Assembly (NCBI RefSeq): GCF_003790525.1
Contig: NZ_CP033635.1
From: Escherichia coli
GTDB lineage: Bacteria > Pseudomonadota > Gammaproteobacteria > Enterobacterales > Enterobacteriaceae
Length of the DNA: 64,000 bases
Direction: 5' to 3' (one strand)
The notes beneath the pieces are model-generated. The model was not told where the DNA came from and did no database searches. It saw only the letters and a program-made list of their open reading frames with translations. Below, in pieces: positions 1-9,882 of the stretch (position 1 is its first letter; every line of letters starts with the position of its first letter). Position numbers and translations under genes: made by a program.

Positions 1-216
1 ATGAGCACCGGCCGTAAGCACGTTATGTTATTGTTTCATTAGTAATAATCACTTAAATGTATCGATGAAACAGGTATGACTTAGCGGGAGTGATTGTTTC
101 TGAGTGAACAGAGACCACTTTAGCCTGATAAATGAAAAATGAGCGATTTTTGCAAGTTAGTTTTTCTATAGCCGAGTACGCTCAGCGCCTCGCTTGATTA
201 CAATGAGGTTGCTGCT

Positions 217-1161
217 ATGAGTCCTGATAATATCGGTTCGGCTGTCAATCGCTTCTCAGGTTGGCCATCTAATGATCCTCTAAAAACAGATAACGAATCA
301 ATGACATCACCCGTGGCTGTGCAGGTAATAAAGATGATTGCCGCCATCCTTGACCCATATCGGATAGTCGTTGGAATCGATACACTTTATACAACGCAGC
401 GCGAAACATTTACCTCAGAGAGTCAACAGCTCATTGAATCAGCATTGCAAACACTTCATGTGATAAATTTAAATAACCTGGAAACAAATCTCGATGAGGA
501 CGGTCACTATCTGGCTTTTGGATATAACGTTGACACTCCTGACAGAATAACCGTTTCTGCTTATAATGAAAAAAAGCCTGGCTGCTATGGCCAATGTCTT
601 TTAATACAGGATGACGAAACAGACTTATTTAACCTGATAAAAGTTAAAATTTTTGAAGCCAGGCATAATTATGTCGCTCAATTGATGAGAGATCCGGAAT
701 TTATGTTCAAATTTAGTTATAGCGCTCAACAAAATAGATTAGAACCTCATCTTCTGGTTCCCACTTATTTCCCTCTAAAAACAAACGAACCGGTTACGCA
801 AGAGGATGTACTGTTACTTTATCGTTTCTTTAAAATGGATGGTGATTTTAATATATTAACATCAGATGAATACATGAGTATCATGACACCTCTGATGAAG
901 TGTGAGCGTAGCATCCACGACCACAACAGGTATGTGACGGGCAAAGATACCCTTCTTCTGGACTATCCTCCTTCTGGTAACCAGATATATTTCCATATTT
1001 TTCCTGACGAATCAGCAACACTAGTCCTTTATTTTTCAAACAATGACATTGAATGTTTCGTCTTTGAAAGAGATATTCCGAGCCAGTATCGCTTTTTCAA
1101 AATGTTTACCAATCTGGCACTGGTTATTGATCAGTTAACTGATGCCAATCAAATACTTTAA
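217..1161 (+). CDS. hypothetical protein, 314 aa, low-GC, no recognisable family
   Basis: ORF with AGG-type RBS about 9 nt upstream of the ATG. N-terminus is Ser/Thr/Asn/Pro-rich with no hydrophobic signal peptide. Internal repeated motif YRFFKM appears twice. GC clearly below the core genes in the window. Confidence 0.55.
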   Translation: MSPDNIGSAVNRFSGWPSNDPLKTDNESMTSPVAVQVIKMIAAILDPYRIVVGIDTLYTTQRETFTSESQQLIESALQTLHVINLNNLETNLDEDGHYLAFGYNVDTPDRITVSAYNEKKPGCYGQCLLIQDDETDLFNLIKVKIFEARHNYVAQLMRDPEFMFKFSYSAQQNRLEPHLLVPTYFPLKTNEPVTQEDVLLLYRFFKMDGDFNILTSDEYMSIMTPLMKCERSIHDHNRYVTGKDTLLLDYPPSGNQIYFHIFPDESATLVLYFSNNDIECFVFERDIPSQYRFFKMFTNLALVIDQLTDANQIL

Positions 1162-1241
1162 TTTTTATATATTCCCTGTGGCAAATATTGCTAAACAATG
1201 CCTGGGGATTAATTTTTATTACTCACGGAAAGATTTAAATA

Positions 1242-1664
1242 ATGATCCCATCTCAAATCTCTTTCAACACCCTTCCTGTCAATGCAACATACGCTTCAGA
1301 GACAACAGTTGACACACAAAAATTCTCTGACATCCTCTACTCAGCGGGGTGTTCCCTAAAGGATCTGGCTTATCTGAGCAGATGTCTGGCATCAATACAT
1401 CCGACTATCGCCAAAAACATTTATGAAACAGAAAATCTCAGCGATCAAAAATTACTACATATTGATTGCCGTAGTACAAATGAAATCAAGATAAATATCT
1501 TTTTTGGTCAACAACGAGAAGGATTAATTGAAATTAATTCTGACACTGTCATTTTTTCGATATTGTCTTCATTAATTGACTCCGCCATTTCTAAATTTCA
1601 ACACCAAATCCCCGTTAACGGTTCAGTTAATCGTGAACTATTGTATGAGGATTATACTGATTAA
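1242..1664 (+). CDS. hypothetical small acidic protein, 140 aa, partner of upstream ORF
   Basis: ORF starts 80 bp downstream of the 314-aa ORF on the same strand. By my count about 20 Asp/Glu against about 10 Lys/Arg. No transmembrane segment or signal peptide seen. Confidence 0.45.
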   Translation: MIPSQISFNTLPVNATYASETTVDTQKFSDILYSAGCSLKDLAYLSRCLASIHPTIAKNIYETENLSDQKLLHIDCRSTNEIKINIFFGQQREGLIEINSDTVIFSILSSLIDSAISKFQHQIPVNGSVNRELLYEDYTD

Positions 1665-2210
1665 ATCCACCCAGTCGCGAAAATGGCCTGCGTTATTGCC
1701 AGAGGTAATAAAACCTTTGATTAACGTTACTCATACTGGTAGCACCTTCATGTACCTCTCTTTTTTACGAAAAATCAAAAGAGCTAACTAAGGTCATAAT
1801 TCGCATGAATCATTAACCATTTGTTATTTTCAACATTATTTTTACATTAAGCAGAGATGAATTGCAGTGAAATTCGACTTAAATTTTATGAAATGCATTT
1901 ACTCATGGCTAAACCCATATCACTAAAATGCAAATTAGAAGTAGATCACAAATACCTCAATACACCAAATCAAGTTAATTTTAAAAATTTAACATTCATG
2001 ACATTAGTTGACATAACACACTGAATTAACATGAGAATTTAACAACATACTTTAAACAATCATTTCCCGAAAGACATTTTGAAAATAGATCAATTGCAAC
2101 ATTACGGTCAGATAAAGACACTCCTGTGATATTAAACCTGTGCCGTTATGAACGGCCATAAATACGACGTGTGTAACTTATTTTACTCTCTGTCTTACAA
2201 AGGATTACCC
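1665..2210. promoter_or_regulatory. AT-rich non-coding leader / promoter region upstream of the glutamate mutase operon
   Basis: About 540 bp without a convincing ORF, visibly far more AT-rich than the flanking genes, immediately upstream of the first gene of a six-gene coupled operon. Confidence 0.4.
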
Positions 2211-2660
2211 ATGAAGAAAGCAACACTTGTGATTGGCGTTATTGGCGCGGACTGCCATGCAGTAGGCAATAAAGTTCTGGACCGCGTTTTTAGCAACCAT
2301 GGCTTCAGAGTCATTAATCTGGGCGTAATGGTCAGCCAGGACGAATATATTGATGCGGCCATTGAAACTGGCGCTGACGCGATTGTCGTCTCCTCTATCT
2401 ATGGGCATGGCGATATCGACTGTCTGGGCATGCGCGAACGCTGCATCGAGCGTGGACTGGGGGACATCCTGCTCTATGTGGGCGGTAACCTGGTGGTCGG
2501 AAAACATGACTTCGCTGACGTGGAAACCAAATTCAAAGAGATGGGATTTGATCGCGTCTTTGCCCCAAGTCATGACTTAGAAGATGTTTGTCAGCTGATG
2601 GCCCACGATATCAACCAACGTCATGACGTTGATACTCGTATTCTTGAAGAGGCAATCTGA
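2211..2660 (+). CDS. glutamate mutase S (sigma) subunit, B12-binding component of methylaspartate mutase
   Basis: Translation from [21 protein letters not shown] matches the cobalamin-binding small subunit, including the DxHxxG motif (DCHAVG). Start chosen at the internal ATG preceded by AAGGA; the track ORF starts 21 codons earlier. Confidence 0.85.
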
Positions 2661-8601: not shown

Positions 8602-9882
8602 ATGAAGAAAATAAGTTTAACCACGATGATTCTTTTGGCGCTGGTACTTGGAATGATTATCGGCGTAGTGCTCAATAACACTGCTTCACCGGAAACCGCA
8701 AAACTCTATGCGCAAGAAATATCGATATTCACGACGATTTTCTTACGACTGATAAAAATGATTATCGCTCCGTTAGTGGTCTCTACCCTGGTGGTAGGTA
8801 TAGCTAAAATGGGAGATGCCAAAGCCCTTGGTCGTATTTTTTCTAAAACACTCTTTTTATTTATTTGCGCCTCATTGCTGTCAATCGCCTTAGGCTTGAT
8901 AACAGTAAATTTCTTCATGCCAGGCACAGGAATTAATTTTGTTGCACACGGAGCCGAAACCACCGGAGTGGTCGCGTCAGAACCCTTTACGCTAAAAGTA
9001 TTTATTTCGCATGCTTTCCCCACCAGCATTGTCGATGCCATGGCGCACAATGAAATTTTGCAAATCGTGGTGTTCTCAATTTTCCTCGGCTGTAGCCTGA
9101 CGGCGATTGGTGAGAAAGGCAGCGCCATCGTTCACGCCTTAGATTCGCTGGCACATGCCATGTTAAAGCTCACTGGCTACGTCATGCTCTTCGCTCCCCT
9201 GACCGTATTCGCCGCTATTTCAGCATTGATTGCTGAACGAGGACTGGCAGTTATGGTGAGCGCCGGGATCTTTATGGGTGAATTTTATTTCACCATGTTG
9301 TTACTTTGGGTGCTGCTTATCGGTCTGGCCATCGTTTATGTCGGCCCCTGCATCAGACGCCTGACCCGTGCCCTTTCGGAACCCGCCCTGCTGGCATTTA
9401 CCACATCCAGTTCTGAAGCGGCTTTTCCGGGAACGCTTGAAAAACTGGAGCAATTTGGCGTTTCCCCCAAAATTGCCAGCTTTGTCTTACCCATTGGCTA
9501 CTCATTTAATCTCGTTGGATCAATGGCCTACTGCTCCTTCGCCACAGTTTTCATCGCCCAGGCCTGCAATATCCATTTATCCATCGGTGAGCAAATCACC
9601 ATGCTGTTGATCCTGATGTTGACCTCGAAAGGAATGGCTGGCGTACCACGCGCCTCAATGGTGGTTATCGCCGCCACGCTCAACCAGTTCAATATTCCGG
9701 AAGCGGGGCTGATCTTGCTGATGGGCGTTGATCCGTTCCTTGATATGGGGCGTTCCGCGACAAACGTCATGAGCAACGCAATGGGCGCTGCGATGGTGAG
9801 TCGGTGGGAAGGCGAACATTTCGGCGAGGGCTGTCGGGGTAAAGCATTAAAACCCAATGAATCGAACGTTGCTCTGCCCTGA
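8602..9882 (+). CDS. dicarboxylate/amino acid:cation symporter (GltP/DctA family)
   Basis: Multi-pass hydrophobic protein with GltP-like blocks. Start set at the ATG (MKKISL) preceded by GGAGG; the track ORF begins at an upstream GTG. Confidence 0.8.
   Translation: MKKISLTTMILLALVLGMIIGVVLNNTASPETAKLYAQEISIFTTIFLRLIKMIIAPLVVSTLVVGIAKMGDAKALGRIFSKTLFLFICASLLSIALGLITVNFFMPGTGINFVAHGAETTGVVASEPFTLKVFISHAFPTSIVDAMAHNEILQIVVFSIFLGCSLTAIGEKGSAIVHALDSLAHAMLKLTGYVMLFAPLTVFAAISALIAERGLAVMVSAGIFMGEFYFTMLLLWVLLIGLAIVYVGPCIRRLTRALSEPALLAFTTSSSEAAFPGTLEKLEQFGVSPKIASFVLPIGYSFNLVGSMAYCSFATVFIAQACNIHLSIGEQITMLLILMLTSKGMAGVPRASMVVIAATLNQFNIPEAGLILLMGVDPFLDMGRSATNVMSNAMGAAMVSRWEGEHFGEGCRGKALKPNESNVALP

Follow-up and report, generated by a model that had tools for sequence, protein, structure and literature searches.

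Two AT-rich orphan genes beside the cydAB control region of Escherichia coli: a candidate ancestral locus confined to Escherichia

At the start of a 64,000-nucleotide stretch of the Escherichia coli contig NZ_CP033635.1 (assembly GCF_003790525.1; this whole stretch is called the window below), two open reading frames, ORF1 and ORF2, follow each other on one strand and encode proteins of 314 and 140 amino acids. A preliminary description of this DNA took them for a horizontally acquired module of the effector-chaperone or toxin-immunity type. Our data point to something different. As judged from sequence comparisons, both are real coding genes, neither has a detected homologue outside Escherichia, and ORF1 appears to work without ORF2. 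The overall explanation that we favour, at about even odds (a probability of roughly 0.5), is that of an orphan pair which is ancestral beside the cydAB control region, has been inherited vertically and was replaced in many E. coli lineages. The features concerned are as follows (positions in the window).

135 to 216, plus strand: 5' region of ORF1, candidate promoter or 5' untranslated region, with a Shine-Dalgarno-like GAGG at 205–208, 8 nt before the ATG.
217 to 1161, plus strand: ORF1 (ATG start), acidic soluble orphan protein of 314 amino acids; constraint is strongest over the N-terminal 90 residues; YRFFKM at residues 202 and 291.
1162 to 1241, plus strand: AT-rich spacer of 80 bp with a weak Shine-Dalgarno-like GGAAAG that is not shared by E. 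albertii.
1242 to 1664, plus strand: ORF2 (ATG start), acidic orphan protein of 140 amino acids; conserved core at residues 45–91, broken in E. albertii and in scattered E. coli genomes.

Coding status and distribution of ORF1 and ORF2

The preliminary description had given the two frames, their sizes and the 80-bp gap correctly, and what it said of base composition and of ORF1 also stands. GC content is 38.3% in ORF1 and 36.4% in ORF2 (35% and 33% at third codon positions, GC3) against 51% for the window and 50–53% for glmS, glmL and glmE, the first genes of the glutamate-mutase (glm) island that lies downstream. Ser (6), Thr (2), Asn (4) and Pro (4) make up 16 of the N-terminal 40 residues of ORF1, a matter of composition only, and the hexapeptide YRFFKM occurs exactly twice, an exact six-residue repeat being found in 0.14% of shuffled sequences. 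It was right as well to call ORF2 acidic (isoelectric point, pI, 4.80), but ORF1 is equally so (pI 4.64), and acidity therefore does not single out ORF2. Neither protein has a membrane-spanning hydrophobic segment (the peak 19-residue hydropathy is 1.45), so both products are read as soluble. The first 2.2 kb of the window are identical (100%) to E. coli SMS-3-5 (NC_010498.1), where RefSeq lists ORF1 as WP_012311832.1 and ORF2 as WP_000613114.1, each labelled 'hypothetical protein'. The genes are known in databases under this label, and we found no study of them.

Comparison between and within species indicates that both frames are under moderate purifying selection as protein-coding genes. 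Equally long open frames would be expected by chance in DNA of the same composition with probabilities of ∼1e–9 (314 codons) and ∼1e–4 (140 codons). Between E. coli and E. albertii, 219 of the 945 nucleotides of ORF1 differ without a single indel, and all 314 codons are kept; the synonymous rate (dS) is 0.52, the non-synonymous rate (dN) 0.23 and their ratio (omega) 0.44. Omega is lowest in the annotated frame (its mirror frame excepted), changes are most frequent at third codon positions, and of 5000 neutral simulations, each with as many substitutions as observed, none left the frame open. The corresponding ratio for polymorphisms within E. coli (pN/pS) is 0.42 over 12 alleles of ORF1 (44 synonymous and 69 non-synonymous changes) and 0.32 over 9 alleles of ORF2 (27 and 30, respectively). 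The first 90 codons of ORF1 have an omega of 0.27 with normal dS, from which it follows that constraint acts on the protein. Flanking core genes of the same genomes show dS of 0.21–0.58 (lower, 0.06, for ybgC) and dN of at most 0.013, and at the protein level ORF1 has evolved at least 17 times faster than these neighbours.

Both genes classify as taxonomically restricted orphans, since the searches made here detected no homologue outside Escherichia: the carriers are E. coli/Shigella, E. albertii and the cryptic species Escherichia sp. MOD1-EC7003 only. A word-index search of 5.8 billion protein clusters, run with single sequences and with a profile, returned only Escherichia proteins. From 1.84 billion representatives, a full HMMER profile search with ORF1 retrieved nothing but pieces of this protein itself, and a profile-based second search for ORF2 added merely its truncated E. 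albertii form. Scans of both proteins against Pfam, NCBIfam, PADLOC (5027 models) and PHROG gave no significant family match and sequence-profile searches of PDB no relative, which bears out the earlier remark that the two proteins resemble nothing that can be named; the remote-homology route proposed at the time, with PDB profiles and with Foldseek on predicted models, likewise led to no family. A scan of one genome per species (n = 100,044) yielded four loci, in E. albertii, in MOD1-EC7003 and in two metagenome-assembled genomes. The latter two loci (L012 and L013, labelled Citrobacter sp. and Collinsella sp.) are 97–98% identical to the E. coli locus and are most simply read as mis-binned E. 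coli DNA. Together with L003 and L006 (P0046, P0047) they had been considered as distant relatives and were rejected, as they proved to be short contigs, assemblies with many errors or E. coli DNA in the wrong bin.

Among 5426 complete E. coli genomes, 1138 (∼21%) contain the pair, at one locus per genome (median 1). The glm genes are found in 1135 of the 5426, so that pair and island travel together within this species. Carriers include O157:H7, O55:H7, O145:H28, O127:H6 (enteropathogenic E. coli, EPEC, E2348/69) and E. albertii, and also SMS-3-5 and many human, dog and chicken isolates without an attaching-effacing serotype label (as far as labels go), while Shigella dysenteriae has a fragment only. 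Tblastn found no copy in phages and no true copy in plasmids, the 'plasmid' matches being records of 0.73–4.9 Mb, that is, chromosomal DNA. The PLSDB entries with the locus are NZ_CP141089.1 and NZ_CP134663.1 (4.9 Mb each) and CP088669.1 (0.73 Mb), apparently chromosomes or chromosomal fragments filed as plasmids.

ORF1 without ORF2 and the age of the locus

The state of the two genes in different genomes argues strongly that ORF1 is autonomous. At each of the five E. albertii loci inspected, ORF2 is decayed or interrupted by a nonsense codon, and ORF1 is intact (314 amino acids) in four of them; at least 13 distinct intact 314-residue alleles of ORF1 are on record for this species. Three of its genomes with the glm island (L017–L019) have an intact ORF1 followed by a colinear ORF2 with an in-frame TGA at codon 36 that also ends 14 codons early. 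A glm-less lineage (L002) keeps ORF1 intact next to fragments of ORF2 with stops and frameshifts, and in the type strain ORF1 is frameshifted. In 16 E. coli genomes, ORF1 is canonical in 14, extended by loss of its stop codon in one and disrupted by an insertion sequence (IS) in another, and ORF2 is intact in 13, frameshifted beside an intact ORF1 in two and IS-affected in one; an IS insertion at the locus is seen in Br_112. In MOD1-EC7003 both frames are broken by 130-nt repeat elements.

Since ORF1 is intact where ORF2 is broken, ORF1 does not need ORF2. This independence contradicts a scheme with ORF1 as toxin and ORF2 as antidote and weakens the effector-chaperone idea. Given the losses of ORF2 in all five E. 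albertii loci and in two of the 16 E. coli genomes, the genes are not kept as a pair, which speaks against the module of the preliminary description.

Some individual lesions deserve a mention. In O145:H28 strain RM13514 (L009) ORF1 is intact, ORF2 and glmL are frameshifted and glmS is shortened, reflecting either decay of the whole block or indel errors of the assembly. In OkiPb01695 (L027) the lost stop codon of ORF1 adds 11 residues. The MOD1-EC7003 elements, at L015:8345-8474 and 9084-9213, are in inverted orientation and 86% complementary, and we presume that they resemble ERIC/IRU repeats.

The place of the pair beside cydA is the same in all species that carry it (E. coli, E. albertii and MOD1-EC7003). 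The dS of ORF1 lies within the range of its core neighbours, and this together with the synteny means that any acquisition predates the split of E. coli and E. albertii. The claim of horizontal acquisition thus retains the foreign-like GC content in its favour and has against it the syntenic position in both species and a core-like dS. The pair also differs in composition from the glm island (36–38% versus 53% GC) and is found without it in some E. albertii. These comparisons point to old, vertical inheritance rather than to a recent mobile insertion: the pair would have stood beside the cydAB control region already before E. coli and E. albertii separated, would have been passed down vertically since then, and would later have been replaced in many lineages of E. 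coli.

The locus is non-mobile and has no tie to secretion, phages or defence. Secretion systems, integrases, phage genes and defence genes are all missing from the 14 kb to each side of the pair, and no Rhs, VgrG or contact-dependent inhibition (CDI) gene is found nearby; the neighbours are tol-pal, cydABX, the glm island and sucCD. With ORF2 lost beside an intact ORF1, no neighbour of these kinds and no copy on a phage or true plasmid, neither the toxin-immunity nor the effector-chaperone reading of the pair is supported.

Possible function and competing explanations

Most likely, both products are soluble intracellular accessory proteins. AlphaFold2 with shallow alignments gave models of low confidence (predicted local distance difference test, pLDDT, 42 for ORF1 and 40 for ORF2), in which two modules of helices, a three-strand meander and a long helix are predicted in ORF1 and one in ORF2. 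Foldseek found no match to either model at E ≤ 0.001, with template modelling (TM) scores of at most 0.36; tandem SH2 proteins, the top matches of ORF1, were discarded (TM ∼0.13, poor model). ORF1 might act by protein binding through its conserved N-terminal 90 residues and its two alpha/beta modules, and ORF2 might be a dispensable modulator with a similar predicted layout of helix, three-strand meander and helix. Expression would come from the 82-nt leader before ORF1 (135–216), over which E. coli and E. albertii are ∼90% identical, in contrast to the poorly conserved positions 12–134, and probably under special conditions only. Expression from AT-rich DNA in E. coli is usually confined to such conditions. 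The joint picture of ORF1 as a non-toxic accessory or adaptor protein, ORF2 as a dispensable modulator and expression from the leader is tentative, and we hold it at rather worse than even odds. As a separate observation, ORF2 has a C48-x4-H53 ... H73-x2-C76 arrangement (window 1383–1469) that shows no variation among the E. coli alleles or in E. albertii; to see a metal site in it is speculation, and no family match supports it.

The pair compares well with the orphan genes of enterobacteria. AT-rich lineage-specific orphans are a familiar category with many members in E. coli, and ORF1 and ORF2 share with them the lack of homologues outside one genus, a GC content ∼15 points below that of the genome, a raised dN (0.23 for ORF1 versus at most 0.013 for core neighbours), patchy presence and sporadic pseudogenisation. 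The pair is mildly unusual in its age, length and persistent low GC: unlike its counterparts, ORF1 is long (314 residues), the locus is not a recent acquisition but an old, syntenic one, and low GC3 has lasted since before the E. coli-E. albertii split.

It should be noted, however, that several points weigh against this explanation. The polar N-terminus of ORF1 and its small acidic partner still give the pair a superficial likeness to effector and chaperone. An omega of ∼0.4 (range 0.3–0.6) means relaxed constraint, and together with the breakage of ORF1 in the E. albertii type strain and in MOD1-EC7003 it makes the function dispensable. The shared alpha/beta layout is weak, as both AlphaFold2 models are of low confidence. 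The helix/three-strand/helix pattern and a BLASTP match (E 1.8) had suggested an internal duplication of ORF1 and paralogy of ORF2 with its C-terminal half, and neither is supported, with an hhalign P of 0.05–0.14 and Smith-Waterman scores inside the distributions for shuffled sequences. No mention of expression turned up in paper texts and supplements searched by candidate locus tags and WP accessions (the Z/ECs numbers were guessed from FumD = ECs0757 and are weak misses), and there is no positive evidence of any molecular activity for either protein.

The relaxed constraint raises the question whether the genes are slowly decaying relics without a present function. Besides omega, the absence of the pair from 79% of E. 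coli and the repeated independent inactivations (the type-strain frameshift, the MOD1-EC7003 repeats, the IS in Br_112, the nonsense codons and frameshifts of ORF2 and the S. dysenteriae fragment) favour this. Still, in comparisons between species as well as within E. coli, omega is distinctly lower than 1; 314 codons have stayed free of indels at 23% nucleotide divergence, no neutral simulation kept the frame open, the leader is conserved, and most of the 16 E. coli genomes have both genes in canonical form. We regard relics as unlikely.

A functional tie to the neighbours, with the products acting as modulators of the glutamate-mutase/methylaspartate operon or of cydAB expression, seems just as unlikely. 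Position suggests it, as the pair lies directly upstream of glmS on the same strand and always adjoins the cydAB control region; so do the almost perfect agreement in occurrence between pair and glm island in E. coli (1138 versus 1135 genomes) and, in E. albertii, the more decayed ORF2 of the glm-less lineage and the frameshifted ORF1 of the type strain. However, co-occurrence in E. coli may reflect linkage only, ORF1 is intact in glm-less E. albertii, GC differs by 15 points from that of the glm genes, and ORF2 is parted from glmS by 546 bp, which include a conserved block of their own close to glmS. Kronen and Berg (2015) described the glutamate-fermentation cluster of E. coli O157:H7, and ORF1 and ORF2 are not mentioned in the searched passages of their paper (PMC4682846). 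As reported in these passages, the glm/fumD cluster also occurs in Klebsiella, Citrobacter, Salmonella, Yersinia and others (PMC4682846), whereas homologues of ORF1 and ORF2 are confined to Escherichia. Thus the pair is physically adjacent to the glmSLE-mal-fumD cluster of O157:H7 and co-inherited with it in E. coli, but differs from it in GC content and range and occurs in some E. albertii without it.

A little less probable again is that ORF1 together with ORF2 starts a new protein family peculiar to Escherichia, with a specific activity and a fold absent from current databases. Candidates would be a secretion substrate, a novel sort of toxin or defence module in which ORF1 protects, or a lineage-specific regulator linking cydAB respiration to glutamate fermentation.

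We consider it improbable that ORF1 is a type III secretion substrate, of the locus of enterocyte effacement (LEE) or of E. coli type III secretion system 2 (ETT2), with ORF2 as its class I chaperone. Effector and class I chaperone pairs such as Tir-CesT are the natural comparison; the chaperones are acidic proteins of ∼130–160 residues with the CesT/SycE-type alpha-beta3-alpha-beta2-alpha fold. Like such pairs, ours has a larger protein with a polar N-terminus, rich in Ser, Thr, Asn and Pro, followed by a protein of 140 residues and pI 4.8 in low-GC DNA, and attaching-effacing lineages (O157:H7, O55:H7, O145:H28, O127:H6 and E. albertii) are among the carriers. Unlike them, ORF2 matches neither CesT nor any other chaperone family in Pfam, and its low-confidence model has three helices, three strands and one long helix against the five strands of the class I fold. 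The partner is dispensable: ORF2 is inactivated in every E. albertii locus inspected while ORF1 is kept in most, and E. albertii carries LEE. The locus is chromosomal, flanked by core genes and outside any type III secretion or effector locus or prophage; 21% of E. coli have the pair, including many without an attaching-effacing serotype label (again by labels only). Finally, the N-terminus is the best conserved part of the ORF1 protein, which is unusual for a bare secretion signal.

No better are the chances of a toxin-antidote, toxin-immunity or anti-phage defence module. Two adjacent uncharacterised genes on one strand, in AT-rich DNA at a variable locus, do recall type II toxin-antitoxin or polymorphic toxin-immunity cassettes, and if ORF2 were the toxin, its loss with ORF1 left as an orphan immunity protein would be tolerable. 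In contrast to such cassettes, the pair shows no toxin, antitoxin or immunity domain in the 5027 PADLOC models, Pfam or NCBIfam (matches at E ≤ 1 are noise, and PADLOC assigns 0 families), its genes do not overlap and are separated by the 80-bp spacer, it is single-copy, vertically inherited and never on phages or plasmids, and the neighbours are all metabolic or envelope genes, with no integrase, Rhs, VgrG or CDI gene nearby. An intact upstream gene can outlive the downstream one, as in E. albertii and E. coli RM13514, which contradicts ORF1 as toxin and ORF2 as antidote and leaves the reverse polarity unaffected; an upstream 'antitoxin' of 314 residues would be atypical. Known anti-phage defence systems differ too, there being no PADLOC family and no defence island.

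The old orphan pair that we favour is present and under selection in lineages of medical importance: O157:H7, O55:H7, O145:H28, EPEC E2348/69, many human and animal isolates and E. albertii. Either of the earlier labels, had it held, would have made the pair a new virulence or competition factor; a toxin-immunity or effector-chaperone label should not be passed on to these genes. ORF1 offers a clean case of an old orphan, 314 residues long, syntenic and still AT-rich, which can be used to study how orphan genes persist.

Neighbouring genes and control regions

Upstream of the pair and divergent from it are the ∼800-bp cydA control region, cydABX-ybgE, ybgC and tol-pal. On the downstream side, in the orientation of the pair and beyond the 546-bp spacer (32% GC), are glmS-glmL-glmE and methylaspartate ammonia-lyase, then genes for an AtuA-like protein, a DUF4387 protein, a dicarboxylate symporter and a class I fumarase (FumD), next cobO and a LysR regulator gene, and finally sucDC. 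The preliminary description placed the pair at an island edge, and this agrees with the map, as the low-GC segment stops at glmS and the upstream side is occupied solely by the cydA control region and cydAB; the sequence before the start of the window, where it proposed to look for further island genes, has none.

A simple scan found no canonical sigma-70 match before ORF1. Promoter- and terminator-like sites in such scans were no commoner than in shuffled sequences and none was well placed, and an Rfam scan of window positions 1–2400 gave no match. Strong conservation between E. coli and E. albertii is seen over a stretch of ∼170 nt upstream of glmS (2040–2210), where an identical block of 52 nt (2051–2102) holds the near-palindrome TTGAAAATAGATCAA at 2079–2093. 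This stretch is likely to be a control region of the glm operon.

The control region upstream of cydA itself occurs in very different forms. The SMS-3-5 type (L001:13412-14216, from the cydA start to window position 216) and the K-12 type (L028:7001-7846) are 80% identical over the first 376 nt and unrelated beyond, and yet the CydA protein is identical (WP_000884361.1); the region of E. albertii closely resembles the SMS-3-5 type. The junction between cydA and sucD has at least four alternative contents in Escherichia and is a replacement hot spot, with no visible integrase. These are ORF1-ORF2 with the glm island; in E. coli genomes that lack the pair, mngB-mngA-mngR (K-12 types) or a single gene for a tetratricopeptide repeat (TPR) protein; and, in E. 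albertii, ORF1 together with a 258-residue gene without a Pfam match.

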